Part shown: one piece after another, positions 1 through 18,124 of the stretch
Layout of the letters: each line of letters starts with the position of its first letter
Numbering within the stretch: the first letter of the stretch is position 1
Assembly (NCBI GenBank): GCA_965242865.1
Contig: CBDETK010000013.1
Coordinates: 1 to 64,000 of the forward strand
DNA length: 64,000 bases
Source: Candidatus Latescibacterota bacterium
GTDB lineage: Bacteria; Latescibacterota; UBA2968; UBA8231
Direction of reading: 5' to 3'
Program-made: the position numbers and the translations under genes
The notes under the pieces: model-generated
What the model was told of the DNA's origin: nothing
Database searches by the model: none
The model's input: only the letters and a program-made list of their open reading frames with translations

Positions 1-1
1 G

Positions 2-220
2 CAGCTTCCTGCCCTTCTAGAAACAGGAGAGAGAGTCATCTGCGTGGACATACTGTTCGTTGTAGAAGAGCCGTCTGAATCCGCATATAATCCAACAACG
101 CCAGGACGCACTCCGTCTTTTTTTCGCTTAATATGGGATCGGGACAAGAAGCTCTGGCACCATGTGGAAGTATTCTACAGTCCTGGAGTAGCAGAGACTT
201 ACTTCTTTGGTCAGTTTTAA
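2..220 (+). CDS. 3' end of secreted unknown protein, paralog of 8319..9230 (partial, runs off window)
   Basis: Frame 2 reads QLPALLETGERVICVDILFVVEEP...PGRTPSFFRLIWDRDKKLWHHVEVFYSPGVAETYFFGQF*, matching the C-terminus of 8319..9230 (KLPALLAAEKKITCADIMLIVEEP...PGRTPSFFRLMWDQDKKLWRHLEVFYSPGVGETYFFDLL). Not in the ORF track. Confidence 0.9.
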   Translation, partial: QLPALLETGERVICVDILFVVEEPSESAYNPTTPGRTPSFFRLIWDRDKKLWHHVEVFYSPGVAETYFFGQF

Positions 221-310
221 TGGTTTTATCGATCACGAGCCTATCTTAGGCTCATATAACCCATCCCATTTGGGATAGGGTTTTCACCCAAACCCTAAGG
301 AGGGACTATC

Positions 311-502
311 ATGAAGCGGAAACTGTCGAAAGTGGCCATCAGCCTCATTGCCCTCGCTGTGCAACTCTTGCCGAGCAAAGCAGAGGCTGTAAAGTGCTGC
401 ATAGAACTGCCGAGCGGCGTCAAGCTGTGCGCCTATTGCCCCGAAGACGCCTGCGACTACGAGCTGTCAGGCGACGGCAATTACAGAATTGTCTGCACCT
501 AG
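311..502 (+). CDS. Small secreted Cys-rich peptide (63 aa; Sec signal + 37-aa mature part with 6 Cys)
   Basis: RBS AAGGAGGG upstream; MKRK-hydrophobic-AEA signal peptide; mature VKCCIELPSGVKLCAYCPEDACDYELSGDGNYRIVCT; positional paralog at 9255..9455. Confidence 0.85.
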   Translation: MKRKLSKVAISLIALAVQLLPSKAEAVKCCIELPSGVKLCAYCPEDACDYELSGDGNYRIVCT

Positions 503-526
503 TCAGCTTGCTCAGCAGCTATCCAA

Positions 527-564
527 AGAAGGTGGGTGAGCCTTGGGCTCGCCCACTTTCTTCT
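527..564 (+). terminator. Stem-loop / probable intrinsic terminator after peptide gene 1
   Basis: AGAAGGTGGGTGAGCC-TTG-GGCTCGCCCACTTTCT inverted repeat (G:U pairs allowed) ending in a pyrimidine run. Confidence 0.65.
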
Positions 565-631
565 CGCAGCTAACCAGTCTGCAAGTACGTACCAGCGCAA
601 CGCTGCTTTACCTTACTAATCGGAGCCGATT

Positions 632-1546
632 ATGCCCCTGATAATACTACTATTGGCAGCCTACCCGATAGGTGCCCAGTTGCCCTCAGAGGTAGTACTG
701 GATTCGGTGTATAGCGGCCAAAATAGAACCCACTCGATTGCGTTCGAACCCGCCGCCGACATCGAGATAGAAAACGTGCGGACGGGCTGCGGCTGCACCG
801 GAGTCGAATTCCCTAAGGGTGTGCTGAAAGCTGGTGAAGAATACCATCTGAAGGTCGATGTAAATACGGCGGAACGCTCTGGTTCCTTTAAGAGCCACGT
901 TGCGGTCAAAATCGCTGGCGAAGAATCACCGTGGAACCTGAGCCTCCAAGTACAGGCCGTGCCGCCCTTTCCCGCCGAAATAGACTTTGGAGAAATAGAC
1001 CTCATTACCTTGCCCTTAGAGCACCATCTGTCGCTTTCCCAGATTGCCGACCAGCCGCTCGTTATCGCCTCGGTAGCGGTGCAGGGCGAAGGCGTCGTGG
1101 CATATCCTACGGACGCGGGTACAGGGCTGTTGCTTAGGACCGACGAGGCGTTGACTTGGGGCAGCCGAGTTGACGGCCTAGTCGAAGTCCACTTGGCGGG
1201 GAACGACCAGACACTACAGCAGACCGTGCATGTCGAGGGAAAGGTTATAGACCAGTTCCAAGTAGATCCATCCGCTCTTTCTTTTGGCATGGGCAAGCCT
1301 CACCGACGGCAAATAAAAACGGTCGCAGTACGTGTTGCACCCGATGCGGCGCAGGCTCCGGTCCGGGTGCAATCGAAGTGCCCAGCACCTACATTCGCTT
1401 TCGATTGGCTTTGGGAGACGGATCAGCGGCTAGTCGTCGAGATGCACAACGAAAGCGACTTCCCGATGGGCCAGACCGATTGCGAAATTATCGTCCACAT
1501 TGGGGATAACCCAGTAGCGATTCCCATATTCGCCCTGACTCGATAG
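632..1546 (+). CDS. DUF1573-type Ig-like secreted protein
   Basis: N-terminal signal peptide; IENVRTGCGCT motif typical of DUF1573; repeated beta-rich Ig-like segments (EIDFGEI, PSALSFG). Confidence 0.75.
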   Translation: MPLIILLLAAYPIGAQLPSEVVLDSVYSGQNRTHSIAFEPAADIEIENVRTGCGCTGVEFPKGVLKAGEEYHLKVDVNTAERSGSFKSHVAVKIAGEESPWNLSLQVQAVPPFPAEIDFGEIDLITLPLEHHLSLSQIADQPLVIASVAVQGEGVVAYPTDAGTGLLLRTDEALTWGSRVDGLVEVHLAGNDQTLQQTVHVEGKVIDQFQVDPSALSFGMGKPHRRQIKTVAVRVAPDAAQAPVRVQSKCPAPTFAFDWLWETDQRLVVEMHNESDFPMGQTDCEIIVHIGDNPVAIPIFALTR

Positions 1547-1582
1547 GTCAGGCCGAACTGCGGGCAAACAAGCTGAGGGTAT

Positions 1583-4102
1583 ATGCTACATTCTATCATA
1601 GCAAAACTTTCTGAGCGCTTGCTGTTTTGGGATCGTTGGCTCCATCGGTGGACGGAACTGGACCAACTGGCGCGAGACCAACGGACGATACTCGTCTTTT
1701 TTCATGGGTATAGCTTGGCGCACACCATCCGACCACTCGTGTTCGCTCGTGTATTGCGAGCGCGAGGGTATCCAGTCGAGTGCGCCGGACGCGGCCCCTA
1801 TATTGATCGGATCGCTAAAGAGGGGTTCCCCATCCACGATGTCGAGACCTTGCCGCAGGAACGGATGGACGAATACGTGGCCCAGGGCGAATACGGCTAT
1901 TACGACTTATCGTGGATTGATCGTTGCGTCCAGTCGGAACGGAACTTGATCCAAGCGATTAAACCGGCCTTAGTAATCCAAGATATGAAGCCGACCCTCT
2001 CCATAGCGGCTCAACTCGAAGGGGTTGACGAGGCCATCGTGAGCCAAGCCTATAACCAGCCGGGCTATCCGTTTCCCATACGGCTGATGCCGTCGTTCAG
2101 CACCGATCCGGGGCCATTTAGTACCTATCTCAAGCGCAAGGCGCGTGAGGTAAAACCCCGGAAAAAGATTTACCTACTAGCGGACATCCCCGAATTCCAT
2201 CCGCCTCCAGAACAGGCGGCTCCGGGGTATCACTACGTAGGCCCTTTGCTGGACGACCCACAGGCAAAAGGTACGGTTGCGATTCTCGACCAAGGATGGG
2301 ACTTGTCTTGGCCGCTGGTCTATGTGACCTGTGGCAGCAGTGGGAGACCTCCCGAATACTTGGAGGGACTAATTGAGGCGGTGGAGCACAAGCCCATCCG
2401 TTTGTTCATCACCACGGCTGGCCGCTGGGCGGGAACGAGCTACCCTAGCAATGTCCGGGTGACCGACTTTCTTCCCGGCGAATGGGTCTTGCAGCAGGCG
2501 AGGGCCTTGGTAGGCATTGTCGGCATTGGTGCTATTTATCAGGCACTGCGGTGCGGAGTGCCCATCATTGGTGCGCCCGAGCACTTGGATCAGGAGTACC
2601 ATTTGAATCGCATTGAGCAACTCGGATTGGGCGTAAAGATCGACCGGAAGGCATTTCGGGCAGATGAGATTTTGGCGGCCCTGTATCGAGTGATGGGAGC
2701 GGATTCCCCGTTTGCGGAGTCGTGCCGTGCTTTTGCCAAAAAAACCGCCCCATGGCACGGAGGCCAAGTCGCGGCCGATCTGGTAGATGATTTCTTTCTC
2801 GCCCAAGAAAAACTCCATCAAATCGATTCTCTTTATGCTATGGAGAAACAGGAGTTCGTCCGCCAGCTAGTCGCCAGTTCCCCGCTTTCAACGGAGGATG
2901 TAGAGACCATTCTGCACGAAGACACGGGCCGGGGACTGCCGCACCACAAAGTCCCCGGGACATTGTACTACGACCGCATTGATTCGTGGAATTGGCTCAA
3001 CGACCACGAGCCTCGCTTTTTTGAGGCCGACTACCAAGCGTTGGAGCAGAAGCGCAATCGGTTTTTCATCCGGGACGAAAAGGGAGTCCGGGGCCGCAAG
3101 AAATGGCAGCACTACCGAGTGACCTACCAGTTGCGTATTCATCCGGCACCCCTTCAGCCCGGTCAGTGTGCCCGGATTTTCCTACCTTATCCCACCGAAG
3201 GGCGCGGCCAACGGGATATCCGGCACATCGCCTGCGAGCCGGCTGAAATGGAAGCCGTGTTGGTGCCGGCGATGGGCTTTTTCTACAACTACGAGCGGAC
3301 CAAAGGTTCCGCGGAGAGCGAGCCTTGGGAACTAAGCTATGTCTGCGAGTTGACCGTGGAAGAATTCCCGCCGGCCAATGGTTGTCAGCCAGTTCCTCTA
3401 AGCCCCATTGAGCAAAAACGGTATCTGCACCTAGACCCTGCTCTGGCGGACTGTCCCGAAGTTGAGGTCTTCCGGCAGGAACTAGGCCCTAGGGCAGGGT
3501 GCAGCGACGAGTGGCGTGCCCGTGCTCTATACGAGGCCCTAATGCACACCAAACGATTCAAGAAAACCAAAGACCCCACCCAGAGTATCGGGTACAGTAC
3601 CCAAGCGATTTTGAGCGACACCGGCGGTCACTGCATCACGCTTTCGCGAGCGTTTATGGCCCTGTGCCGTCTAGATGGAATCCCCGTGCGCGAAGTCGCC
3701 GGTGCTCTGATCGGGTATCCTACCGGGGACGATACCTTTGCGGCCCACTCGTATCGAGACCCCCTCTTCGGCCATACGTGGGCTGAGGTCCATCTAGCGG
3801 AAAAGGGCTGGATACCCGTCGAGTTCCACGGCACCGTTATCGGACGGAACGCCCTGACGGACCGCAATGTCGCCGACCCGGTGCTGCGCGGCCGGATCGA
3901 GGCGAATACCGATCCGTATTGGGCCTATTACTTCGGCCATCTGGACACCCAACGCATCCGGTGTTCCAATTCCGTCAAAAATATCCCGCAATGCCTCGTA
4001 GAGCGGCTCGACGCGCAGGCTGGAGATCCCAATCGGTGGGATTTGCAGACCGAATTGCCGTACGAGTGCCACTTGCAGACCGAGATACTCAACGAAGGCT
4101 GA
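1583..4102 (+). CDS. GT-B (GT1/GT28-C-like) glycosyltransferase fused to a C-terminal transglutaminase-like domain
   Basis: N-half: LAHTIRPLVFARVLRARGY, LVYVTCGSSG, NVRVTDFLP...ALRCGVPIIGAPEHLDQEYHLNRIEQLGLG. C-half: GGHCITLSRAFMALCRLDGIPVREVAG...GHTWAEVHLAEKGWIPVE (transglutaminase-like Cys/His core). Confidence 0.85.
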   Translation: MLHSIIAKLSERLLFWDRWLHRWTELDQLARDQRTILVFFHGYSLAHTIRPLVFARVLRARGYPVECAGRGPYIDRIAKEGFPIHDVETLPQERMDEYVAQGEYGYYDLSWIDRCVQSERNLIQAIKPALVIQDMKPTLSIAAQLEGVDEAIVSQAYNQPGYPFPIRLMPSFSTDPGPFSTYLKRKAREVKPRKKIYLLADIPEFHPPPEQAAPGYHYVGPLLDDPQAKGTVAILDQGWDLSWPLVYVTCGSSGRPPEYLEGLIEAVEHKPIRLFITTAGRWAGTSYPSNVRVTDFLPGEWVLQQARALVGIVGIGAIYQALRCGVPIIGAPEHLDQEYHLNRIEQLGLGVKIDRKAFRADEILAALYRVMGADSPFAESCRAFAKKTAPWHGGQVAADLVDDFFLAQEKLHQIDSLYAMEKQEFVRQLVASSPLSTEDVETILHEDTGRGLPHHKVPGTLYYDRIDSWNWLNDHEPRFFEADYQALEQKRNRFFIRDEKGVRGRKKWQHYRVTYQLRIHPAPLQPGQCARIFLPYPTEGRGQRDIRHIACEPAEMEAVLVPAMGFFYNYERTKGSAESEPWELSYVCELTVEEFPPANGCQPVPLSPIEQKRYLHLDPALADCPEVEVFRQELGPRAGCSDEWRARALYEALMHTKRFKKTKDPTQSIGYSTQAILSDTGGHCITLSRAFMALCRLDGIPVREVAGALIGYPTGDDTFAAHSYRDPLFGHTWAEVHLAEKGWIPVEFHGTVIGRNALTDRNVADPVLRGRIEANTDPYWAYYFGHLDTQRIRCSNSVKNIPQCLVERLDAQAGDPNRWDLQTELPYECHLQTEILNEG

Positions 4103-4116
4103 ATGGAGCGGTCTCT

Positions 4117-5145
4117 ATGGAACTCAGCGTCGTCATCCCTACGTACAATCAGCGGGAACGACTCCGCTTGGTCTTGAGCGGCTTGGAGGGCCAGACCCTG
4201 CCGCCCGAGTGCTTTGAGGTCTTGGTCATTGATGACGGCTCGACCGATGGCACGGCAGAAATGCTCAATGCGTTACCCATCGACAATATGAAGCCGATCA
4301 AACTCCATCCGAACGAAGGACGCTGCTCGGCGAGGAACCGAGGAATCAACCAAGCCGAGGGCGCCCTCGTCGTGTTGCTCGATGGAGACGCTCTGCCGGC
4401 CCCCGACTTGCTACAAACGTATCTAGACGCCTTTGGGGAACACGGGCCGGATGGCGTGTTGTGCGGCCGGCTGTACTCGCTGGCCGAGTTGGAGTTTTTC
4501 CAAGACCCCCAGCGCGGGTCACTCGCTGATGTCGCCATCCCTAGCGTTCAGAAAGACTACCTAGCGAGCCACCGGGCAGAATTGATCCTGACCGAAGCGA
4601 TGGTTCGCCATGATTTCGCGGCCATCCGCGAGCGTGCCCTCCCGGGCGGCTATCCCTTCCCCGAACTGGAACAGATGCAGGACGAACAAATCGATCTCTT
4701 GCACCGATGCCCAGATGCGGCGGTAGCTTGGCTAGGGCTGACGCCCCACAACAGTGCCCTGCCCCGCGAGGCGTTGCGAGCTATCGGAGGGTTCGACGTC
4801 ACTATTCCTTTTTGCGAAGGCTGGGAGATAGCGTACCGGTGCCAGCAATACGGGTGTCGGCTCTATGGCGTACCGGCGGACACGTACCACCTATACCACT
4901 TCCACGACTTCAACGCCGCCGAGACGGCCGTGCGCCATCAGGCTATCGAGTACATGGCCGACAAATTTCAGGAGCCGCGCATCCGCTTGCTCTACTTTTG
5001 GTTCGCCCACCTGTGGCCAGACCCATTCTTGCCCGAAGAATCCTTGGTGGAGGATCTAGTTGAGTTCAACCGACGCTACCAGACCCTCACGGATGCGGAA
5101 TGGCAGCAGTATCAGTTCCTATTGGACCATCGGCCGAAGGAATAG
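4117..5145 (+). CDS. Glycosyltransferase family 2 (342 aa; start re-called to ATG 4117)
   Basis: MELSVVIPTYNQ, EVLVIDDGSTDGT, GRCSARNRGI, LVVLLDGD (DxD), IGGFD. GGAG precedes the ATG at 4117. Confidence 0.9.
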   Translation: MELSVVIPTYNQRERLRLVLSGLEGQTLPPECFEVLVIDDGSTDGTAEMLNALPIDNMKPIKLHPNEGRCSARNRGINQAEGALVVLLDGDALPAPDLLQTYLDAFGEHGPDGVLCGRLYSLAELEFFQDPQRGSLADVAIPSVQKDYLASHRAELILTEAMVRHDFAAIRERALPGGYPFPELEQMQDEQIDLLHRCPDAAVAWLGLTPHNSALPREALRAIGGFDVTIPFCEGWEIAYRCQQYGCRLYGVPADTYHLYHFHDFNAAETAVRHQAIEYMADKFQEPRIRLLYFWFAHLWPDPFLPEESLVEDLVEFNRRYQTLTDAEWQQYQFLLDHRPKE

Positions 5146-5168
5146 CTAAAGAAAGGAATAGCTAAAGA
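5137..5168 (+). repeat. 16-bp tandem duplication AAGGAATAGCTAAAGA x2 spanning the GT2 stop and permease RBS
   Basis: Exact copies at 5137-5152 and 5153-5168. Confidence 0.85.
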
Positions 5169-5169
5169 A

Positions 5170-6717
5170 ATGATAGGAATCGTTTGGAAAAAAGAGCTGG
5201 TAGATCAGCTAACCAGCCAGCGATTTATATGCTGTACTCTGATTATAGTGTCACTTATATGGGTCATTGGGCTGCTGCGCATAGCAAGTTACGAAAGAGC
5301 ACAGGTAGAAAAGGATCGGATCGTCGCCGAAACGACCGACGAGCTCCGCAAAATATATAAATACTGCAAACTGCGGACTAGGGTCGTCCGCACCCCGAGT
5401 CCACTAGAGGTCTTGGACCGGGGCGTCACCGAGCAAAAGAGCTCTATAGTGCCCATTGAGATATACGAGATACCCTACGTCACCGACAAGCACTCCTTGT
5501 CGGACACCAACACCCGTTTCGCTGACAAGCAGCTCCTATCGACCTCCGGCAACCCTTTGCTCGCCACAATAGGTACATTTGATGTCGTTCACGTCATCCA
5601 AATTTTCCTGTCGTTGTTGGCCATTCTCTTTGCGTGTGAGTCCATTTCAGGCGAAAAAGAGGAAGGCACCTTAGCACTAATGCTAACGATGAATGCCTCC
5701 CGAGTGCAGATCGCGACGGGCAAATTCCTGAGCGGTATTACGCTCCTCAACATACCTATTTTCTTGGGCTTTCTCGGTCCCGCAATTTTTCTCATTGCGT
5801 CCGAGCACATCCGGCTTACGGGGGACGACTGGCTTGGTCTCATCGGGATTTGGGCGACCTCCCTGTTTTACATCGCCATCTTCTACCTAACTGGCATGGC
5901 CATTTCGTGCTATACCCACAGCACTTCGACCAGCTTGATATACGGTCTATTTATCTGGGCCTTTTTGGTAATTGTTGTGCCGGGTAGTATTGAGTTTTTG
6001 GTCAATCAGCAATTCCATCGCTTGGAGGATGCCCGGACGGCCGAAGCCGCAAAAGACGAGCTGTGGCGCGAATACGAAAAACGGGCTGACGATCTAGTAC
6101 GGACGGCGGGCATAGGCGATACTTATCCCCCGCTAGAATTGGTCAGTATTATGATGGGGTATGGGGGTACGACGAGTAAGCCATCTTTTCATATCGGACC
6201 GATTCGAGAGGATGCCCGTATCGCTGACTTCCTAAACATTCTGAAGACCGGAGAGAATCTACGCCTCCAATATGCCCAAAAGGTTTGGCATGCCTGCGGC
6301 CCGCTTTGGGAGGGCCGGCCCCGGTCGCTCATTCGCCTAAACGATCAGTTACAAAGAATAACGCCGGCCGGGGCCTATCTAGCGGTTGCCGGCGGCTTGG
6401 CCGGTACGGATGCAGGGGTTTTTTACGATTTTATCCATCAGGCTCGTCAGTACCGCGAGCAACTCTTGGAGTATCTAAGGGCGCACGACGCGTTCGGAAG
6501 CATGGAGTTTGTAGGGGATCCAGAGGCGACACGCGAGGGCCGAGAGAAAAGAACGGCACTTAACCTCAGCGATCTGCCAGCCTTTGCGGAACGCCGTGAA
6601 CCCTTTCCTCAACGGCTGGGTAGGATTGCGCCGGGCCTTCTATCGCTGTTCATCTATGCGGGCCTGACTTGGCTGGCCGTAATACGGCTCTTTTCTCGCT
6701 ATGATGTTACTCGGTGA
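5170..6717 (+). CDS. ABC-2-type transporter permease A1 with large extracytoplasmic loops
   Basis: IVWKKEL start, ESISGEKEEGTLALMLT and IATGKFLSG ABC-2 motifs, multiple TM helices, C-terminal FSRYDV; paralog at 9603..11102. Confidence 0.88.
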   Translation: MIGIVWKKELVDQLTSQRFICCTLIIVSLIWVIGLLRIASYERAQVEKDRIVAETTDELRKIYKYCKLRTRVVRTPSPLEVLDRGVTEQKSSIVPIEIYEIPYVTDKHSLSDTNTRFADKQLLSTSGNPLLATIGTFDVVHVIQIFLSLLAILFACESISGEKEEGTLALMLTMNASRVQIATGKFLSGITLLNIPIFLGFLGPAIFLIASEHIRLTGDDWLGLIGIWATSLFYIAIFYLTGMAISCYTHSTSTSLIYGLFIWAFLVIVVPGSIEFLVNQQFHRLEDARTAEAAKDELWREYEKRADDLVRTAGIGDTYPPLELVSIMMGYGGTTSKPSFHIGPIREDARIADFLNILKTGENLRLQYAQKVWHACGPLWEGRPRSLIRLNDQLQRITPAGAYLAVAGGLAGTDAGVFYDFIHQARQYREQLLEYLRAHDAFGSMEFVGDPEATREGREKRTALNLSDLPAFAERREPFPQRLGRIAPGLLSLFIYAGLTWLAVIRLFSRYDVTR

Positions 6718-6729
6718 GGCGAACAGGCT

Positions 6730-8199
6730 ATGCTGACGACGATTATCAAACGGGAATTCATCTCGCATATCCAGAGCCTGCGGTTCAGTCTAGTGCTGGT
6801 GTTGTGCGTTGGCTTAATGATGCTCAATGCGCTCGGCCTCGTCCACAGTGCCTATCAATTCGAGCGCGACGTATATAGAGAAAACGTCGCCCAGCAACAC
6901 CAAAGGCTACGCAACAATGGTGCCGCAGGTTTGCACAAGCTATTGCTCGAAGGCCCGGGGTCGCTTTATAAGCAACCTAGTGAATTGGCGTTTTGTGCTA
7001 GTTTCGCCGACAACAAGCTACCCTATAAAATAGATATCAGCACAGTGAAGACCCCTATGGTGGAATATCGCGAGGGCCGAGTCATTGATACGGGTTTTTA
7101 TTGGCCTTGGACTCTGTCTTTTTCTACCGATATAGAGATAGCTCCGCTACTCTCCCCCCTTATCACCATTGACTGGGTCTTTATCATCGGCGTCTTGCTG
7201 AGCTTGGCCGCTCTCTTGTTTACATACGACGCCATCGTCGGCGAAAAGGAGAGTGGCACCCTCAAGCTGGTCATGGCCAACAGCCTGCTGCGCCATACGC
7301 TGCTGTGGGGCAAATTCTGGGGCGCGATGATGGTCTTGCTCGGGGTGCTACTCCTCAGCGTAACCCTCAATCTGTTGATCGTCTTGATGCTCGCCGATCT
7401 ATCGCTGGATTCCTCCCACGCCGGGCGCATCGCCGTCATGGTCTTGATCTCGGGGATTTATCTGGCCGGCTGTACCGCGCTGGGGCTGCTCATATCGGCG
7501 CGTAGTGCTACTAGGCGAGGCAGTCTGACGACGGTGCTCTTCGTCTGGCTGAGCATGGTTTTGTTGTGGCCGCAGATGGGGAAAACCGTTGCCGAGCTAT
7601 TCCATGAAGACCTACAAGAGTTAGAATACACTAAGCTCGTGTACGAGCGCGGCGACGGCTCGTTCACTTGGCATCCTGTTCGGGGACGCGCTTTCAACTT
7701 GGCGGCAGGGCAGGAAAACCTGCTCGATCCTACGTTTATCAAAAAACTTTCGAGTGCATTGCGAGAAGAACGGACGTACCATCAAGAACTAGAAAACGCC
7801 CTGATGCGGCGGCGGGTACAACAGGTCAGTCTAGCCCAAAACATCGTCCGGGTCTCGCCCATGGGCACCTACCAATACGCCATGGAGGCCATCGCGGGTA
7901 CGGGCCTACCGCGCTACCGTCATTTCATCGATCAAGCGAGGAATTACGCCCAGCGTTTTGAGGAAACCCTGCTCGCCATTGATCGGGCCGACTGGCGCAG
8001 CCTGCACGTTCCATTTGTCGAGCACGGGCTTTCTACGCAAAAGGTAGCGTTGGAGCAAATACCCGTGTTTGCCGAAGACCTCTCGGCCGCGTCGTTGGCT
8101 GGCTCGGCTGTAGTCGATTTGGTCTTGCTCGGCTTCTTTGCCGTGTTCACCTATCTGGCCGCATACTTGGTCTGGCTGCGCTCGTCTATCGCCGACTAG
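6730..8199 (+). CDS. ABC-2-type transporter permease B1
   Basis: IIKREF start, DAIVGEKESGTLKLVMANS, LLWGKFWG; paralog at 11110..12579. Confidence 0.88.
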   Translation: MLTTIIKREFISHIQSLRFSLVLVLCVGLMMLNALGLVHSAYQFERDVYRENVAQQHQRLRNNGAAGLHKLLLEGPGSLYKQPSELAFCASFADNKLPYKIDISTVKTPMVEYREGRVIDTGFYWPWTLSFSTDIEIAPLLSPLITIDWVFIIGVLLSLAALLFTYDAIVGEKESGTLKLVMANSLLRHTLLWGKFWGAMMVLLGVLLLSVTLNLLIVLMLADLSLDSSHAGRIAVMVLISGIYLAGCTALGLLISARSATRRGSLTTVLFVWLSMVLLWPQMGKTVAELFHEDLQELEYTKLVYERGDGSFTWHPVRGRAFNLAAGQENLLDPTFIKKLSSALREERTYHQELENALMRRRVQQVSLAQNIVRVSPMGTYQYAMEAIAGTGLPRYRHFIDQARNYAQRFEETLLAIDRADWRSLHVPFVEHGLSTQKVALEQIPVFAEDLSAASLAGSAVVDLVLLGFFAVFTYLAAYLVWLRSSIAD

Positions 8200-8236
8200 C
8201 GGTTCGTTCTGCGATCCGCTTATTTTTTATTTTTTT

Positions 8237-8263
8237 TGTAACATTTTCCTAACGGCATACGTT
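8237..8263 (+). promoter_or_regulatory. Candidate ECF-sigma promoter TGTAAC-N17-CGTT
   Basis: -35 TGTAAC at 8237-8242, 17-bp spacer, -10 CGTT at 8260-8263, T-rich tract upstream; motif and spacing are conserved at 12616-12642 while the spacer has diverged. Confidence 0.55.
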
Positions 8264-8318
8264 ATTACTTATGAGAAGCGTTCTTAAACAATGCGAAAAT
8301 CATGCAAGGAGGCTTTCT

Positions 8319-9230
8319 GTGAAAACGCTTACGCTCTTGTGCAGTGCGCTTATTATCACACCCGTACCCAGTCAAGCCCGCGAAGGGGGCTATGGCGGCT
8401 TTACCCAAGAGAACATACAGGAGTTTTACGACTACATACACGGCCAAGACGTGATTAAGGTGCAAGCAGGCGAAGAGTTGAACCAAGCCATTGACGCGAT
8501 CCCCATTAACTTGGAGACGGCCATCGACTTGGAGCAAGAGCGCGGCTTGCGCGACTGGTTGCGCCAGTATCTGATTGCGTTTTCCGAAGCGGGCAACGAT
8601 AGCTTGGTCGCCGCCTTCTATCTGAGGGCGGGATTTAATGAAGAAAGATATATGGCTCGAAGTCTGGCATGGGCTAATTTTGCTCGGGAAAATGCCCGAA
8701 ATCCAAGCATCACCCTCAAAAGTGCAGACGGAACCATACTAACCGACGAAGAAGAAATAGAGAAAGCAGCTCAAAAATTGGTTGATGATGCCAGAGCGAG
8801 TTTGAAGGAAGGGCCGCTTTCTATATTTCTTTCAATGTACAAAGGTGCGCTAAAAAACCACAACAAGGAGTATTTTATAGAAAACGTATCGTTCCACGAC
8901 AGTAGCTTTAGAGTGTTCGAGTTAGGGAAAAAGGATCCGAAGCTCTTACACCTGGCATCTGATCTAGGAATGTTACCTAAGGGGTATAGACCCTATCCGA
9001 CAGCACTAAGCGATAAACTTCCAGCACTTCTAGCAGCAGAGAAAAAGATCACCTGTGCAGATATAATGCTCATTGTAGAGGAACCACTAGCTTTTACACC
9101 TCATCCGGTCCCAGGACGCACACCATCATTTTTTCGTTTGATGTGGGACCAAGACAAGAAGCTATGGCGTCACTTGGAAGTATTCTATAGCCCTGGAGTA
9201 GGAGAGACCTACTTCTTCGACTTACTGTAA
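8319..9230 (+). CDS. Secreted protein of unknown function (303 aa; start re-called to GTG 8319)
   Basis: AAGGAGG RBS before GTG 8319 gives signal peptide MKTLTLLCSALIITPVPSQA; paralog at 2..220; no family recognised. Confidence 0.8.
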   Translation: MKTLTLLCSALIITPVPSQAREGGYGGFTQENIQEFYDYIHGQDVIKVQAGEELNQAIDAIPINLETAIDLEQERGLRDWLRQYLIAFSEAGNDSLVAAFYLRAGFNEERYMARSLAWANFARENARNPSITLKSADGTILTDEEEIEKAAQKLVDDARASLKEGPLSIFLSMYKGALKNHNKEYFIENVSFHDSSFRVFELGKKDPKLLHLASDLGMLPKGYRPYPTALSDKLPALLAAEKKITCADIMLIVEEPLAFTPHPVPGRTPSFFRLMWDQDKKLWRHLEVFYSPGVGETYFFDLL

Positions 9231-9254
9231 CCCCCTTTACAGGAGGAGTTCGCT

Positions 9255-9455
9255 ATGAAGCGGATATTCGTACAAGTGGGTATCGCCCTCGTCGGCATGA
9301 TCGCTTGGCTCTTACCGAACCAAGCAAAGGCCGATTTCGACTGTAACGCAACGGTGGGAGGTATCTCCGTAACATGGTCATGCCGGGGGGATGACCAGTG
9401 CCACGTGAAAGTCATTCTCACTAATCCTCCCCACTTTATAGTTAGCTGTGTCTAG
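9255..9455 (+). CDS. Small secreted Cys-rich peptide (66 aa; Sec signal + 40-aa mature part with 4 Cys)
   Basis: RBS AGGAGGAG; signal MKRIFVQVGIALVGMIAWLLPNQAKA; mature DFDCNATVGGISVTWSCRGDDQCHVKVILTNPPHFIVSCV. Confidence 0.85.
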   Translation: MKRIFVQVGIALVGMIAWLLPNQAKADFDCNATVGGISVTWSCRGDDQCHVKVILTNPPHFIVSCV

Positions 9456-9460
9456 CAAAG

Positions 9461-9507
9461 ACAGAACGCAGGTAAGCAAGTGTTGAGCTTACATGCGTTC
9501 TGTTTAT
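9461..9507 (+). terminator. Stem-loop after peptide gene 2
   Basis: ACAGAACGCA-g-GTAAGC...GCTTAC-a-TGCGTTCTGT inverted repeat followed by TTAT. Confidence 0.6.
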
Positions 9508-9602
9508 ACTATAACGCATAACGCAAGTACGGTGCAGTTCCTTGATAGAGGGTTTAGGTATAATCGATAGCGATTAAAAATAAACCTAAAGAAGGTCAGA
9601 AA

Positions 9603-11102
9603 ATGATAAAAACCATCTGGAAAAAAGAGTTGCTAGAGCAGCTCACTAGTCGGCGCTTTATCTATTGTACCCTGATTATCGTGTCGCTTATATGGGTCGT
9701 CGGCCTGCTGCGAATAGCAAGTCACGAAAGGGCACAGACCGAGAAAGATCGAATCGTCGCAGAAACGGCCGACGCGCTCCGCGAGGTATATAAATACTCC
9801 AAATTGCAAACCCAAGTCGTTCGCACACCCAATCCCCTCGAAGTCTTTGACCGGGGCGTCACCGAGCAAAAGAGCTCGGTAGTGCCCATTGAGATATACG
9901 AAATACCCTACGTCACCGATCAGCACACCCTATCGGACACTGGCAATCCTTTACTCTCCATAATCGGTTCGTTTGATGTCGTTCACGTCGTCCAGATCTT
10001 TCTATCGTTGTTGGCCATTCTCTTTGCGTGTGAGTCCATTTCAGGCGAAAAAGAGGAAGGCACCCTAGCGCTGATGATGACGACGAACGTCTCCCGAGTA
10101 CAGATCGTGACCGGCAAACTCTTGAGCGGCATTACGCTCCTCAACATACCTATTTTCTTGGGCTTTCTCGGCCTCGCAATTTTTCTCATTGCTTCTGAGC
10201 ACGTCCGGCTTACAGGGGCCGATTGGCTAGGTCTCGTTGGGATTTGGCTGGCCTCCCTGTTTTACATCGCCATCTTCTACCTGATTGGCATGGCCATTTC
10301 GTGTTACACCCACAATACTTCAACCAGCATGATGTACAGTCTGTTCGTCTGGACCTTTTTGGTGATTGTCTTGCCGATCAGCACTGCGTTTTTCGTCAAT
10401 CAGCAGTTCCAGCGGCGAGTAGATGCCCAGCAAGCCGAGGCGATGGAAGACGAATTGTGGAACGAGTACGAAAAACGGGCTAACGGCTTGGTGCGCACGG
10501 CCGGGATGGGCGATACCTACCCGCCGCTACGCTTGATCAGTAATAGCTGGGGGGGGCGCGGCCCGAGTTTCCAGATCGGAGCGATTAAGAAGGACGCCCC
10601 CATCGCCGAATTCCTAGACATTCTGAGGGCCGGCGAGAACCTACGCCTCCAGTATGCCCAAAAAATTTGGCATGCTTGCAGTCCGCTTTGGGAAGGCCGG
10701 CCCCGGTCGCTCGCCCGCCTAAACGATCAGTTGCAAAGGATCGCGCCAGCCGGGGCCTATCTAGCGGTCACCGGCGGTTTGGCTGGTACGGATGCGGGGG
10801 TTTTCTACGATTTTATCCGTCAGGCTCGTCAGTACCGCGAGCAAATTTTGGACTATTTAAGGGCGTACGACGCATTCGGGAGCATGGCATTTATAGGTCA
10901 ACCTAGTTTTACAGACGAGGATAGAGCGGCTAAAAGAACCGCGCTCGACCTCAGCGGTCTTCCGGTCTTTATAGAGCACCGTGAGCCCCTCTCTCAACGG
11001 CTGGGCAGAATTGCGCCCGGCCTTCTCTCGCTGTTTATCTACGCGAGCCTAACTTGGCTGGCCGTAACCGGGCTTTTTGCTCGCTACGATGTCGTGAGGT
11101 GA
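9603..11102 (+). CDS. ABC-2-type transporter permease A2
   Basis: Closely similar to 5170..6717 (same ESISGEKEEGTLAL motif and C-terminal RYDV). Confidence 0.88.
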   Translation: MIKTIWKKELLEQLTSRRFIYCTLIIVSLIWVVGLLRIASHERAQTEKDRIVAETADALREVYKYSKLQTQVVRTPNPLEVFDRGVTEQKSSVVPIEIYEIPYVTDQHTLSDTGNPLLSIIGSFDVVHVVQIFLSLLAILFACESISGEKEEGTLALMMTTNVSRVQIVTGKLLSGITLLNIPIFLGFLGLAIFLIASEHVRLTGADWLGLVGIWLASLFYIAIFYLIGMAISCYTHNTSTSMMYSLFVWTFLVIVLPISTAFFVNQQFQRRVDAQQAEAMEDELWNEYEKRANGLVRTAGMGDTYPPLRLISNSWGGRGPSFQIGAIKKDAPIAEFLDILRAGENLRLQYAQKIWHACSPLWEGRPRSLARLNDQLQRIAPAGAYLAVTGGLAGTDAGVFYDFIRQARQYREQILDYLRAYDAFGSMAFIGQPSFTDEDRAAKRTALDLSGLPVFIEHREPLSQRLGRIAPGLLSLFIYASLTWLAVTGLFARYDVVR

Positions 11103-11109
11103 ACGCACC

Positions 11110-12579
11110 ATGCTGACGACGATTATCAAACGGGAATTTATCGCCCACATCCAGAGCCTGCGGTTCAGCTTGGTGCTGGTGCTGTGCGTTGGCTTGATGG
11201 TGCTCAATGCACTCGTCCTCGTCCACAGCACCTACCAATTCGAGCAAGACGCTTACATAGAAAACACCTCCCAGCAACACCAAAGGTTGCGCGATAACGG
11301 CGCGGCCGGTCTGTGGAAGCTCCTGCTCGCAGGGCCTGGGGTGCTTTATAAGCAACCTAGCGAATTGGCGTTTTGCGCTGGTTTCGCCGACAACAAGTTG
11401 CCAGACAAAGTAGAGGCCGAATCGAACCAGAACTATCTGATGTCAGATATTATCGGGGGTCCGCACGTTGATAAAAGTTGGTATTGGCCGTGGGTTTTAT
11501 CTTTTTCGGCCGAACTAAAGGATACTCCACTACTTTCCATCTTCATCACCGTTGACTGGGTCTTTATCATCGGCATCTTGCTGAGCTTGGCCGTCTTCCT
11601 GTTCACTCACGACGCCATTGTCGGCGAAAAGGAGAGCGGCACCCTCAAGCTGGTCATGGCCAACAGCCTGCCGCGCCATACGCTGCTGTGGGGCAAGTTC
11701 TGGGGCGCGATGATGGTGCTGCTCGGGGTGCTGTTCCTCAGCATAACCCTCAATCTGTTGATCGTCTTGATACTCGCCGGTCTGTCGCTGGATTCCTCCC
11801 ACGCCGGGCGCATCGCGGTCATGGTCTTGATCTCGGGGGGCTATCTGGCCGGCTGTACCGCGCTGGGGCTGCTCATATCGGCGCGTAGTGCTACTAGGCG
11901 GGGCAGTCTGACGGCGGTGCTCTTCGTCTGGGTGGGTATGGTTTTGCTATGGCCGCAGATGGGCAAGACCATCGCCGAGCTATTCCACGAAGAGGTACAT
12001 GAGTTAGAACACACCAAGTACGTGTACGAGCACGGCGACGGCTCGTTCACTTGGCATCCTATTCGGGGGCGCGCCTTCAATTTGGCCAACAAGGGCGATC
12101 GGCTCGATCCGACGTTTATCAAGGAGTTTTCGAGCGCGTTGCGAGAGGAACGGGCGCACCATCAAGAATTAGCAAACGCCTTGATGCGGCGTCGGGTACA
12201 ACAGGTCAATTTAGCCCAAAACATCGTCCGGGCCTCACCCATGGGCACCTACCAATACGCCATGGAGGCGATGGCGGGTACGGGCCTACCGCGCTATCGC
12301 CATTTCATCGATCAAGCGAGGAATTACGCCCAGCGTTTTGAGGAAACCCTGCTCGCCATCGATCGAGCCGACTGGCGCAGTTTGCACGTCCCGCTCGTAA
12401 AGAACGGGCTGTCCGCGCAAAAGGTAGCGTTGGAGCAAATACCCGTGTTTGCCGAAGACCTCTCGGCCGCGTCGTTGGCTGGCTCGGCCGTCGTCGATTT
12501 GGTCTTACTCGGCTTCTTCGCGGTATTCACCTATTTGGCCGCATACTTGGTCTGGCTGCGCTCGTCTATTGCCGACTAG
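11110..12579 (+). CDS. ABC-2-type transporter permease B2
   Basis: Closely similar to 6730..8199; same length (489 aa) and identical C-terminus. Confidence 0.88.
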   Translation: MLTTIIKREFIAHIQSLRFSLVLVLCVGLMVLNALVLVHSTYQFEQDAYIENTSQQHQRLRDNGAAGLWKLLLAGPGVLYKQPSELAFCAGFADNKLPDKVEAESNQNYLMSDIIGGPHVDKSWYWPWVLSFSAELKDTPLLSIFITVDWVFIIGILLSLAVFLFTHDAIVGEKESGTLKLVMANSLPRHTLLWGKFWGAMMVLLGVLFLSITLNLLIVLILAGLSLDSSHAGRIAVMVLISGGYLAGCTALGLLISARSATRRGSLTAVLFVWVGMVLLWPQMGKTIAELFHEEVHELEHTKYVYEHGDGSFTWHPIRGRAFNLANKGDRLDPTFIKEFSSALREERAHHQELANALMRRRVQQVNLAQNIVRASPMGTYQYAMEAMAGTGLPRYRHFIDQARNYAQRFEETLLAIDRADWRSLHVPLVKNGLSAQKVALEQIPVFAEDLSAASLAGSAVVDLVLLGFFAVFTYLAAYLVWLRSSIAD

Positions 12580-12662
12580 CGGTTCGTTCTGCGATCCGCT
12601 CATTTTTTATTTTTTTGTAACCTTTTTTTCGAATCATCCATTATTACTTATGAGAAGCGTTA
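12580..12662 (+). repeat. Second copy of the cassette intergenic/promoter region, truncated; contains TGTAAC-N17-CATT at 12616-12642
   Basis: Aligns to 8200..8282 (CGGTTCGTTCTGCGATCCGCT...TTATTACTTATGAGAAGCGTT), then similarity stops. Confidence 0.8.
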
Positions 12663-18098: not shown

Positions 18099-18124
18099 CG
18101 GCTGTTCTCCGCAGGTTGCGCCGG

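Follow-up and report, generated by a model that had tools for sequence, protein, structure and literature searches.

A roughly 23-kb gene cluster in a Candidatus Latescibacterota bacterium is best explained as an assembly of exchangeable cassettes, restricted to one Latescibacterota genus. Its repeated cassettes and unusual sugar-adding enzymes look like a novel bacterial system for peptide weapons or signals. On the reading we favor by a modest margin over doubt, disulfide-rich peptides exported by Sec are captured by a cognate protein, X, and leave through cognate ABC-2 permease pairs served in common by one ATPase/TolC engine.

The window, the whole 64,000-nucleotide stretch analyzed, carries the 3′ part of the cluster at bases 2–12662; the rest continues at the contig's opposite end. 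The original prediction gave the gene order as X1-pep1-hairpin-DUF1573-GT1/TGase-GT2-permA1-permB1-promoter-X2-pep2-hairpin-permA2-permB2, and this order is present as follows.

2..220, + strand: X1, the last 72 aa of an X-family protein, with 64% identity to X2 at its C-terminus
311..502, + strand: pep1, 63-aa precursor, GGAGG ribosome-binding site, peptide HMM E 1.2e-21
526..562, + strand: 17-bp terminator/attenuator-like hairpin after pep1, -35 kcal/mol, z -3.49
632..1546, + strand: DUF1573 protein with signal peptide and CGC motif, PF07610 E 8.8e-15
1583..4102, + strand: fusion of GT1 (UDPGT/EryCIII_C) and Transglut_core by Pfam, 839 aa, no signal peptide
4114..5145, + strand: soluble GT2-family glycosyltransferase, 343 aa, PF00535 E 1e-26
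5170..6717, + strand: permA1, ABC-2 permease with DUF3526, PF12679 E 7.9e-23
6730..8199, + strand: permB1, ABC-2 permease with DUF3526, PF12679 E 3.3e-26, PF12040 E 1.3e-9
8237..8269, + strand: candidate ECF-sigma-type promoter 5′ of X2, by motif (TGTAAC-N17-CGTT)
8319..9230, + strand: X2, secreted 303-aa protein, GTG start with ribosome-binding site, no Pfam match
9255..9455, + strand: pep2, 66-aa precursor, AGGAGG ribosome-binding site, peptide HMM E 1.8e-16
9459..9505, + strand: 18-bp hairpin after pep2, -27.2 kcal/mol, z -4.41
9603..11102, + strand: permA2, ABC-2 permease, 76% identical to permA1
11110..12579, + strand: permB2, ABC-2 permease, 83% identical to permB1
12583..12662, + strand: truncated third unit, repeat of the inter-cassette spacer and of the start of the 8271 frame leading into X2

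The X2 start proposed at 8319 is a GTG behind an AAGGAGG ribosome-binding site, and a 98% identical homolog is also 303 aa long, in agreement with it. A truncated promoter had been noted after permB2; it belongs to a truncated third unit, whose spacer repeat continues up to about 12662, where a convergent 877-aa gene ends it. Duplication is graded, with permB1/B2 83%, permA1/A2 76% and the X1 C-terminus/X2 64% identical, and pep1 and pep2 belong to different sequence classes. The contig break falls inside X1, and residues 1–57 of X2 recur identically in an X N-terminus at the contig end. A search of the upstream flank for the ATPase and more units had been advised, and both were found at the contig's other end. 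This part encodes an ABC ATPase, a TolC-like outer-membrane protein, a coiled-coil/Ig-like periplasmic protein and an ECF sigma factor, together with a third permease pair, two further X genes and a third peptide gene.

Both precursors have a Sec-type signal (…LLPSKAEA in pep1, …LLPNQAKA in pep2). The pep1 core is 37 aa long with 6 Cys (class 1b), and the pep2 core is 40 aa long with 4 Cys (class 1). Pep1 matched no family in Pfam or NCBIfam, and a paralog 79% identical to it is encoded at the contig end. Genome-wide, the peptide HMM matches five places, all at X loci. Four Cys and one Trp in the pep2 core are invariant across eight orthologs. Leaders are much more conserved than cores, with identities of 0.78 versus 0.38 for class 2 (105 pairs, 15 sequences) and 0.67 versus 0.40 for class 1 (21 pairs, 7 sequences). 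The hypervariable cores span 33–48 residues with 4 or 6 cysteines, and the Cys framework is kept. Both hairpins are real, as originally proposed: each folds better than all 200 of its shuffles. Judged by sequence, the ribosome-binding sites, hairpins, conserved leaders beside variable cores and Cys framework mark the peptides as real genes.

X represents a new family, confined to this genus. The AF2 model of X2 (pLDDT 83.9, pTM 0.78) is an NTF2-like cone with a variable helical insert. In the fold search its best match was Csd6 (4xzz_A; Z 7.1, rmsd 4.0, 126 aligned), followed by many NTF2-like entries at Z 5.4–7.1; the match is middling, as Z is at most 7.1, in a range the search tool rates as common. 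Foldseek returned nothing for X2 at E 1e-3 or better. ESMFold2 complexes of X2 with the pep2 core gave ipSAE values of 0.66, 0.60 and 0.67, and the best of three controls gave 0.00; partner pLDDT was at least 80 and at least 87% of contacts were common between runs. The ipSAE mark is reached by 116/157 solved complexes and 2/215 mismatched pairs, counts that apply only roughly to X2-pep2 because self-built alignments were used. The modeled pep2 contact sits on the most variable surface of X, where the majority-residue fraction is 0.29 at the 33 interface residues versus 0.63 at the other 250. This one modeled pair supports binding of pep2 by X2.

The unit of X, Cys-rich peptide and ABC-2 pair recurs through the genus, as anticipated. 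Among 31 genus genomes, which are close kin and not independent, 15 are peptide-positive and all 15 are also X-positive; none of the six X-negative genomes has a peptide, and ten X-positive genomes have no peptide match. X lies within 1 kb of 23/32 peptides (25/32 if the contig-split X1 is counted), and a permease lies within 1 kb of 21/32. From the side of X, which outnumbers peptides about 2 to 1, 42/60 genes have a permease within 1.5 kb and only 27/60 have a peptide within 1 kb. The predicted partnership thus stands in one direction, with an X for most peptides (25/32), and fails in the converse, a peptide for each X. The overall interpretation as a peptide system is likewise partly supported: cassette recurrence, the modeled X2-pep2 binding, enzyme context, the upstream ATPase and an own X per peptide bear it out, a peptide per X does not, and glycosylation or cross-linking stays hypothetical. 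In the relatives' loci, which were selected because they hold X, one relative carries four tandem X-peptide-permA-permB units (L028/L029), and L046 and L047 carry X-permA-permB without a peptide. X and the pump can therefore exist without one.

The enzymes had been expected outside polysaccharide loci, and no polysaccharide-export family was found among 19 scanned neighbors of the GT1-transglutaminase/GT2 module. The pair recurs across the bacterial family, and in most neighborhoods read it stands beside small secreted peptide genes, leader peptidases or thiol-disulfide oxidoreductases. It adjoins four unrelated kinds of small secreted peptide genes. This genome has four module copies, every one beside small peptide genes, and one of them is accompanied by a C39 peptidase, a ‘DIKGG’ peptide and a CPBP protein. 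Most of that set (GT1-transglutaminase, GT2-TPR, C39 and peptide) is conserved in another genus (L056). In further genera, the module's neighbors include acidic peptides with signals, redoxins of the DsbA-like and AhpC/TSA types, and an A24 peptidase. In the transglutaminase-like domain, C684 and H731 are invariant and E747 is nearly so (20 sequences), and the D336/Q337/E338 motif of GT1 is kept. The GT1 profile matches YjiC, CalG, OleD and the vancomycin enzymes GtfA/B/D across the whole GT1 domain, and is of the natural-product UDP-glycosyltransferase type. Across the genus, each of the two cassette types has its own divergent paralog set of the enzyme pair (identities of about 85% and about 44%). 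The DUF1573 protein matches the OS_HP2 (seleno)protein model NF041425 at E 1.1e-9, below cutoff; that family is listed as a selenoprotein whose motif is UGC, where CGC stands here. It is a candidate periplasmic thiol-disulfide oxidoreductase with a putative redox role.

These enzymes raise the alternative of a true RiPP or glycocin-like pathway, in which GT1-transglutaminase and GT2 act on the cores while these are still cytoplasmic, adding sugars and perhaps also trimming or cross-linking, the unusually conserved ‘signal’ is read as a leader by TPR proteins, and X with the ABC-2 pairs serves only immunity and export. The peptide neighbors, the C39 peptidase with a double-Gly peptide as module partners in two genera, the A24 leader peptidase and redoxins elsewhere, the natural-product GT1, the invariant catalytic Cys and His, the conserved leaders, the two enzyme sets and the lack of polysaccharide-export families among the 19 scanned neighbors all speak for it. 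Against this, even Cys counts leave no Cys spare for S-glycosylation. Because the glycosyltransferases are cytoplasmic and the peptides bear Sec signals, modification of any kind would precede export, and cytoplasmic tailoring is less usual with such a signal. GT2 shows only generic GT-A similarity, with no glycocin glycosyltransferase among the 26 PDB sequences matched, and by heuristic ORF criteria no peptide ORF was recognized upstream of the module in L048 and L049. Enzyme-free cassettes also exist: the relative L038 has lost DUF1573-GT1TG-GT2 by deletion and retained the permeases, and paralogous locus B of this genome has no GT pair, so the enzymes are not obligatory for a cassette. We regard this pathway as a serious but tentative alternative, with roughly one chance in three. 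It overlaps the best explanation, and modification is its added claim. Glycosylation or cross-linking of the peptides is plausible.

The pump genes at the contig end include the ATPase that had been sought upstream (ABC_tran), together with the TolC-like protein (OEP E 1.9e-32). Frameshifts in the ATPase are assembly errors; one base is absent at both sites in contigs of all four runs. PermA1 and permB1 contain ABC2_membrane_2 and DUF3526 domains, and the nearest solved relative of permA is NosY (7o0y_D, E 5e-4), matched only in the membrane core at residues 141–269. An NPCBM_assoc protein, the putative adaptor, is modeled with a signal, two helices of about 40 residues, Ig-like domains and a C-terminal transmembrane helix. 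It has no HlyD/MFP signature, and its fold search gave generic Ig-tandem matches only. The same pump parts accompany cassettes in relatives.

Such transport parts could instead serve envelope lipid or glycolipid traffic, with GT1 and GT2 making a glycolipid, X acting as a MlaC-like periplasmic lipid carrier, ABC-2 pairs and the TolC-like protein moving lipid to the outer membrane or beyond, and peptides being accessory or regulatory. NTF2-like periplasmic carriers exist, and MlaC appears low in the X2 Foldseek list (rank 27, E 0.39). GT1 matches include sterol and macrolide glycosyltransferases, a family that also acts on lipophilic small molecules; ABC-2/DUF3526 permeases without X are widespread in the bacterial family (50/76 genomes), and many X genes lack a neighboring peptide. 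However, lipid traffic would leave unexplained the strict nesting of peptides within X-positive genomes, the hypervariable Cys-framed cores, the modeled interface on the variable insert, and the leader peptidases and thiol oxidoreductases at other module copies. We consider it improbable.

Regulatory sequences recur at these loci. The promoter predicted before X2 is present as an ECF-sigma-type motif, TGTAAC-N17-CGTT at 8237, and its function stays at candidate level. Three of 16 chromosomal sites with this motif are in this cluster, and an ECF sigma gene is found 5′ of X in relatives as well as at this contig's end. The sigma-54 consensus has 59 chromosomal sites, and eight of these fall within the loci described here, each immediately 5′ of an X, peptide or pump gene. 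The paralogous locus is bordered by a dCache histidine kinase and a sigma-54 activator (response regulator); at the enzyme module of other genera, the bordering genes encode a histidine kinase and giant sigma-54 activators whose sensor domains are propellers. These neighbors, and the sigma-54 motifs immediately 5′ of peptide genes, would fit quorum-sensing-like signaling, with peptides sensed by the nearby kinases and activators, X as receptor or sink, and the pump as exporter. Signals and receptors within a lineage are usually under purifying selection, whereas peptide hits here reach eight per genome and vary among close relatives, and extra X gene arrays better fit antagonism and immunity. 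Signaling of this kind has about a tenth of the probability in our estimate.

Under the favored capture-and-expulsion reading, one cassette would comprise a small precursor, its cognate periplasmic NTF2-like X and a cognate heterodimeric NosY-like ABC-2 pair with DUF3526. One ABC ATPase, the TolC-like protein and the membrane-anchored coiled-coil/Ig-like periplasmic protein, all encoded upstream, would be common to the cassettes. The ECF sigma factor may activate the cassettes of this window, and sigma-54 the paralogous ones. Precursors would pass through Sec and be cut at an A-x-A site, and cores would be oxidized to two or three disulfides, possibly by the CGC-motif DUF1573 protein. The folded peptide would be caught on the variable helical insert of X, handed to the matching permease pair, and ejected through the TolC-like channel with power from the common ATPase. 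Capture and ejection could provide secretion and self-protection at once, and X genes without a peptide may defend against neighbors' peptides. The soluble GT1-transglutaminase, GT2 and, in relatives, TPR proteins most likely form a common cytoplasmic maturation module acting on precursors before export.

Several known systems share parts of this design. Lantibiotic self-immunity (LanI + LanFEG) places an extracytoplasmic peptide binder and a two-permease ABC-2-type transporter beside the peptide gene, and a hairpin follows the structural gene, as here. Unlike LanI, X is no lipoprotein, and homology between the two was not detectable; the envelope here is Gram-negative and the peptides are not lanthipeptides. 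In NosDFY/NosL, an ABC-2 transporter likewise acts on a periplasmic partner protein and does not move solute across the inner membrane, whereas NosD and NosL are absent here, the cargo differs and permA similarity is limited to residues 141–269. Conotoxin-like toxin families also have signals far more conserved than the Cys-framed mature part; the present peptides are bacterial, encoded with a predicted binder and transporter, and only putatively toxic. The sublancin glycocin locus has the order sunA-sunT-bdbA-sunS-bdbB-sunI. Glycocin loci similarly cluster a small disulfide-rich precursor, GT2, thiol-disulfide oxidoreductases, an ABC exporter and an immunity protein. They differ in having a double-Gly leader, where Sec-type signals occur here; this locus has no C39 ABC transporter, adds a GT1-transglutaminase fusion, encodes peptides with even Cys counts, and belongs to a Gram-negative envelope equipped with a TolC-like protein. 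X, the candidate for immunity here, is NTF2-like and unrelated, and glycosylation here is putative. MacAB-TolC expels the Sec-delivered, DsbA-oxidized peptide STII from the periplasm (PMC5985334). In that system, a Sec-exported, periplasm-oxidized peptide meets an ABC transporter with large periplasmic parts and a TolC-type channel, the route proposed here. Compared with MacAB, the permeases here are ABC-2/NosY-like with DUF3526 and not of MacB/FtsX type, a MacA/HlyD adaptor signature is absent, a dedicated predicted periplasmic binder (X) is present, and several interchangeable permease pairs serve an apparently single ATPase.

The 5′ end of the window and the other end of its contig together carry a cluster of ~23 kb built on a repeated cassette of three parts: X, a predicted secreted protein; a Cys-rich peptide; and a pair of ABC-2 permeases, permA and permB. 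The best-supported account, to which we give slightly better than even chances, is that these cassettes form a capture-and-eject system. ORF listing and domain scans reproduced exactly the gene order of the original prediction, and its GTG start for X2 agrees with the ribosome-binding site found. The features in the window are:

2-220, X1 fragment (ORF/domain scan)
311-502, peptide gene pep1 (ORF/domain scan)
632-1546, DUF1573 protein (PF07610, E 8.8e-15)
1583-4102, GT1 and transglutaminase-like fusion (GT1-TGase), 839 aa (domain scan)
4114-5145, GT2 enzyme (PF00535, E 1e-26)
5170-6717 and 6730-8199, ABC-2/DUF3526 permeases permA1 and permB1 (domain scan)
8319 (GTG start), X2, with an AAGGAGG site upstream
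9255-9455, peptide gene pep2 (ORF/domain scan)
9603-11102 and 11110-12579, permeases permA2 and permB2 (domain scan)

Both pep1 and pep2 have strong ribosome-binding sites and are followed by a long hairpin (0 of 200 shuffles fold as well). Identity between the duplicate copies is graded (permB 83%, permA 76%, X C-termini 64%), and pep1 and pep2 belong to different classes. Past permB2, the spacer and the opening bases of the 8271 frame, which runs into X2, recur and then end abruptly. A minus-strand gene that converges on the cluster (12667-15300) encodes a signal-bearing protein of 877 aa for which Pfam and NCBIfam gave no family; the gene after it, also on the minus strand (15573-18245), encodes a protein of 890 aa with a sorting domain of the CHU_C/type IX kind.

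The contig (G000:C13) is 5.6 Mb in length, and the window is its first 64,000 nt. Its final 171 bases code for the N-terminal part of an X protein that agrees exactly with residues 1–57 of X2, so the assembly breaks inside X1. The contig starts and stops within this one gene (window 1-220; G000:C13:5613396-5613566). A circular chromosome is probable, from whose assembly the X1/X2 repeat has caused ~0.6 kb of X1 to be lost. In the contig end, a sigma-54 motif comes first, followed by two paralogues of X and the third permA/permB pair. After another sigma-54 motif come the genes for a 503-aa NPCBM_assoc protein (the adaptor-like protein), a TolC-family outer-membrane protein (OEP), and an ABC ATPase. 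Next are an intact gene for an ECF sigma factor, a promoter of the ECF type, and the third peptide gene, which is 79% identical to pep1. A degenerate duplicate of the ECF gene and one more ECF-type promoter then lead up to X1. The upstream flank, where further units and an ATPase had been proposed for inspection, thus holds a third permease pair, X, a peptide, and the ATPase. The first sigma-54 motif of the cluster is preceded, ~3 kb upstream, by a DDE transposase of the IS4/5 family (G000:C13:5598698-5599585), which neighbors an opposite-strand gene taken by eye for DNA ligase LigA.

In the assembly, the ATPase gene occupies three frames with two apparent shifts (G000:C13:5611560-5611680; L026:14585, 14674). 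Contigs of four of four public runs are one base shorter at both sites, so the shifts are two single-base insertion errors of the assembly and the gene is intact; a pseudogene was rejected on the same evidence. Other apparent frameshifts here, such as the GT1/TGase split at 381–383 kb, may have the same cause.

A paralogous locus (locus B) at 4.556–4.571 Mb encodes six X proteins, two peptides, a DUF1573 protein, a TPR protein, two permA, and one permB. It sits behind a dCache histidine kinase and a sigma-54 response regulator. The chromosome holds 59 sigma-54 motifs (TGGCA[CT]-N5-TTGC), and eight lie directly before genes for X, peptides, or the pump in these loci, among them sites before Cys-peptide genes next to two other enzyme modules. 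None lies within the window, where the cassettes have an ECF-type motif instead (TGTAAC-N17-CGTT). This motif occurs 16 times in the chromosome, and three of the copies precede X2, X1, and the upstream peptide gene. A sigma-70 motif scan returned 4 sites against 8.2 expected. A terminator scan returned 17 against 12.1 expected, and the two peptide hairpins, which have T-poor tails, are not among them.

X2 has no Pfam or NCBIfam family in domain scans. Among 5.8 billion proteins it has 95 relatives, none with a Pfam domain and one named "hypothetical protein"; a profile search of 1.84 billion representatives gave only 52 matches, mostly fragments. In whole genomes, the X profile matches 24 of the 30 other genomes in the genus, with up to 16 matches per genome, and none of 45 that represent 17 further genera of the family. 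An earlier single-sequence search found X in 19 of 24 genomes of the genus and in none of 16 from the other genera of the class. Some matches contain in-frame stop codons; for the copy in this genome, the match begins 9 bases before the start codon, and the TAG is probably in those bases. X has a signal peptide and no Cys conserved in the alignment, and should therefore be a soluble periplasmic protein.

The AF2 model of X2 (pLDDT 83.9, pTM 0.78) has no match in PDB at E 1e-3 or better with Foldseek. An independent fold search gave Csd6 as the best match (4xzz_A, Z 7.1, rmsd 4.0, 126 aligned). Most matches spanning the X core are NTF2-like or cystatin-like (Z 5.4–7.1, 97–132 residues aligned); Z values below 8 are counted as common, so these matches indicate fold class, not function. 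In our reading, the model is a cone of the NTF2-like type into which a helical segment is inserted at residues 122–196 (319-aa frame). In the Atlas, no match reaches 0.9; the nearest cluster with a name is DUF4864 (0.77), which serves as a lead only.

The N-termini of pep1 and pep2 are K/R-rich, followed by a hydrophobic stretch and an A-x-A site (…LLPSKAEA and …LLPNQAKA) when read from sequence. Three leader classes were distinguished: MKRIFV…WLLPNQAKA, located after X; MKRKLSKVAI…LLPSKAEA; and MKKRIIRLAI…FLPQKAEA, located before X. Leaders are more conserved than cores (0.78 vs 0.38 in class 2, 0.67 vs 0.40 in class 1), and the cores keep 4 or 6 Cys. None of 11 peptides checked has a significant Pfam or NCBIfam match. 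Run on all 13 contigs of the genome, a profile built from leader-matched ORFs matches five places, each within one of the two X loci; a looser regular expression adds one match outside them, which is Cys-free. Across the genus, 15 of 31 genomes have peptide matches (54 in all, most with 4 or 6 Cys), and all 15 are X-positive. Ten of the 25 X-positive genomes and all six X-negative genomes have none. Because the genomes are close kin, this nesting is suggestive and is not a statistical test. In this genome and 20 stretches from relatives, which were chosen because they bear X, an X gene lies within 1 kb of 23 of 32 peptides (25 of 32 counting X1, split by the contig break) and a permease within 1 kb of 21 of 32. 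Of the 60 X genes, only 27 lie within 1 kb of a peptide.

One pair, mature X2 and the pep2 core, was modeled as a complex, with a separate alignment for each partner. The complex scored 0.66, 0.60, and 0.67, against 0.00 for the best of three controls; partner pLDDT did not fall below 80, and the runs had at least 87% of their contacts in common. Of 157 solved complexes, 116 reach the mark used for binding, as do 2 of 215 mismatched pairs; these counts apply only roughly here. The model supports, without proving, binding of pep2 by X2. The modeled contact surface on X comprises the insert (130–196), 238–241, and 308–315. Its 33 contact residues have a majority-residue fraction of 0.29, vs 0.63 for the other 250 residues; within 12 X2-type rows, the fractions are 0.47 and 0.80. 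If the model holds, a variable X surface opposite a hypervariable peptide is the pattern that co-diversifying pairs would show.

The permeases match ABC2_membrane_2 and DUF3526 in Pfam, not FtsX or MacB_PCD, and the nearest solved relative of their membrane core is NosY (7o0y_D, E 5e-4). Two long loops appear to lie outside this core. Close copies (≥44% identity) are found only in this genus, and distant ABC-2/DUF3526 paralogues occur in 50 of 76 family genomes. The OEP, encoded between the adaptor-like gene and the ATPase, matches PF02321 in two scans (E 1.9e-32 and 1.3e-34). The 503-aa adaptor-like protein has only 16 relatives. Domain search gave no HlyD family even at E up to 5, PDB sequence search nothing below E 0.78, and fold search generic Ig tandems only. 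Its AF2 model (pLDDT 76, pTM 0.41) has a signal, two ~40-residue helices forming a hairpin-like N-terminus, Ig-like sandwiches, and a C-terminal TM helix, a shape that could bridge to a TolC-type channel. In relatives, the adaptor-like gene, OEP, and ATPase set adjoins cassettes, with one ATPase gene per up to four permease pairs (stretches L028/L029, L032, L044, L046, and L047).

In the capture-and-eject account, the peptide would be exported by Sec and oxidized in the periplasm, where its cognate X would capture it. X would then hand the peptide to the cognate ABC-2 pair for expulsion by the shared ATPase and TolC-like protein, a step whose closest precedent is MacAB-TolC with the peptide STII (excerpt of PMC5985334). 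Two other roles are weaker than capture and ejection. Traffic of lipids by this machinery is improbable. A signaling role for the peptides is equally improbable; the surplus X genes and hypervariable cores suit antagonism with immunity better.

The DUF1573 proteins in the window and at the paralogous locus contain "GCGCTG" (a U/C-G-C motif). DUF1573 is tabulated as a selenoprotein family with the motif UGC (excerpts of PMC9312934 and PMC13188914), which points to a redox-active site. Given its signal peptide, the protein may be a periplasmic thiol-disulfide oxidoreductase for the Cys-rich cores.

The GT1-TGase family has at least 151 members of ~830 aa, whose named sources are all metagenome bins of Latescibacteria or "Gemmatimonadetes". 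It is present in 25 of 151 sampled phylum genomes: this one, 24 of 63 other family genomes, and 0 of 87 from other families. Along its entire length, the GT1 domain matches natural-product glycosyltransferases (YjiC, CalG2, OleD/OleI, GtfA/B/D). In the transglutaminase-like half, C684 and H731 are invariant and E747 nearly so among 20 sequences. The GT2 enzyme matches 26 PDB sequences, all generic GT-A enzymes. The genus has two divergent paralogue sets of the enzyme pair, ~85% and ~44% identical to that of the window, within two cassette types.

This genome has four copies of the GT1-TGase/GT2 pair. One, at 2.01 Mb (G000:C13:2008339-2015973), has GT2 fused to TPR and lies with the genome's only stand-alone C39 peptidase, a 90-aa "DIKGG" peptide, a CPBP protease, and a Yip1 protein, and looks like a separate bacteriocin-like locus with the same enzyme pair. 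The CPBP/Rce1-like and Yip1 proteins trail the set in this genome; GT1-TGase, GT2-TPR, C39, and the peptide are kept in a second genus (L056). Identity of a double-Gly peptide as a class IIb bacteriocin was rejected, as the match (E 1.7) is not significant. At two further copies, 93–111-aa Cys-rich peptides alternate with ~710-aa FG-GAP proteins with type IX secretion tails, with TPR or DUF4159 nearby. These FG-GAP/FlgD_ig arrays (G000:C13:374196-389581 and 3162397-3177267; L022, L023; L059–L064) encode peptides with a TM-like leader and have sigma-54 motifs before the peptide genes. In relatives they also include an A24 prepilin-type peptidase and two AhpC/TSA redoxins.

Eighteen enzyme-module neighborhoods from other genomes were compared, several on contigs too short to tell. 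The FG-GAP set recurs in six genomes, with peptide matches in three. Other genera encode GT1-TGase, GT2, TPR, and a histidine kinase behind two giant sigma-54 activators (~1,050 aa, Reg_prop/Y_Y_Y sensor domains). In four neighborhoods, 72–89-aa signal-bearing, Cys-free acidic ORFs ending in "GY..GD.D.DG..P" precede the module; none was seen in L048 or L049. They lie just upstream of GT1-TGase:

L050:141-410, acidic ORF
L051:6979-7197, acidic ORF
L054:8034-8252, acidic ORF, one of two copies
L054:8361-8579, acidic ORF, the other copy
L058:11403-11642, acidic ORF

Among 19 unassigned module neighbors, Pfam identified regulators, TPR proteins, a DsbA-like protein, two redoxins of the AhpC/TSA type, a leader peptidase (A24), a transposase, and enzymes of unrelated kinds; none belongs to a polysaccharide-export family. 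With peptide genes beside the module and no such neighbors, the counter-scenario named in the original prediction, that the enzymes sit in polysaccharide loci with no peptides, fails in the neighborhoods examined. The module may modify the peptides, a tentative reading, somewhat below even chances, that is compatible with capture and ejection. The enzymes are not obligatory for a cassette, because locus B cassettes do not include the pair and a deletion in a relative (G019, L038:3143-3474) removed DUF1573, GT1-TGase, and most of GT2. There, a pep1-type gene is fused to a GT2 3′ remnant, and permA/permB are kept.

A broader reading is speculative, and we rate it as rather unlikely as a whole. 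It would make these peptides a Sec-dependent, enzyme-tailored (glycosylated or trimmed), disulfide-rich class served by a plug-in trans-envelope machine, in which one ATPase/adaptor/TolC engine drives interchangeable ABC-2 pairs, each matched to one carrier and one peptide. The genus could therefore swap whole weapon-plus-immunity cassettes. The GT1-TGase/GT2/TPR trio would be a family-wide maturation module for at least four unrelated peptide families.

If true, the capture-and-eject account would describe a new design for peptide export and immunity, with an NTF2-like periplasmic carrier and swappable ABC-2 halves on a shared engine, and would bear on how ABC-2 transporters choose periplasmic cargo. 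The natural-product-type GT1-transglutaminase fusion with GT2 and TPR would be a candidate for a new tailoring module associated with secreted peptides, in a phylum that is uncultured and from which hardly any chemistry is known. The cassettes would offer peptide engineering a natural library of compact disulfide scaffolds, matched binders included, and a testable account of strain-level competition among these bacteria.

No described system with this architecture was found in the main texts of the open-access literature searched, in agreement with the original prediction. The databases searched hold nothing beyond generic names for X, the peptides, the adaptor-like protein, and GT1-TGase. The cluster is not a glycocin locus, because it has no double-Gly leader and no C39 transporter. 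SunS-type glycocins have a double-glycine leader, whereas pep1 and pep2 have no GG site before the core and carry a putative Sec-type signal. Glycocin transporters have an N-terminal C39 domain, and none of the 13 window proteins matches Peptidase_C39. The candidate for a SunS-like peptide glycosyltransferase is the protein with the GT2 domain, whose PDB matches are to generic GT-A enzymes only. A possible likeness to RiPPs in general lies in the recurrent enzyme-peptide neighborhood and conserved leaders, with tailoring predicted.

MacAB-TolC is described as handling the Sec-delivered, DsbA-oxidized STII (excerpt of PMC5985334), and a TolC-family outer-membrane factor (PF02321) is also present here. 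Its permease is of the MacB/FtsX type with a periplasmic domain, whereas those here are ABC-2/DUF3526 proteins nearest to NosY. For the HlyD/MacA adaptor, the candidate in the cluster is the 503-aa protein, which has no HlyD match and is modeled with hairpin-like helices and Ig-like domains. As in LanFEG, two ABC-2 permeases and one ATPase, here upstream and intact, accompany a peptide gene. LanI is a lipoprotein, whereas X has no Pfam or NCBIfam match and, as no Cys is conserved in the alignment, no lipobox Cys. The cluster follows the same logic as bacteriocin and RiPP loci, with a peptide, a binder or immunity protein, an ABC transporter, and tailoring enzymes, but differs from them in parts and layout.
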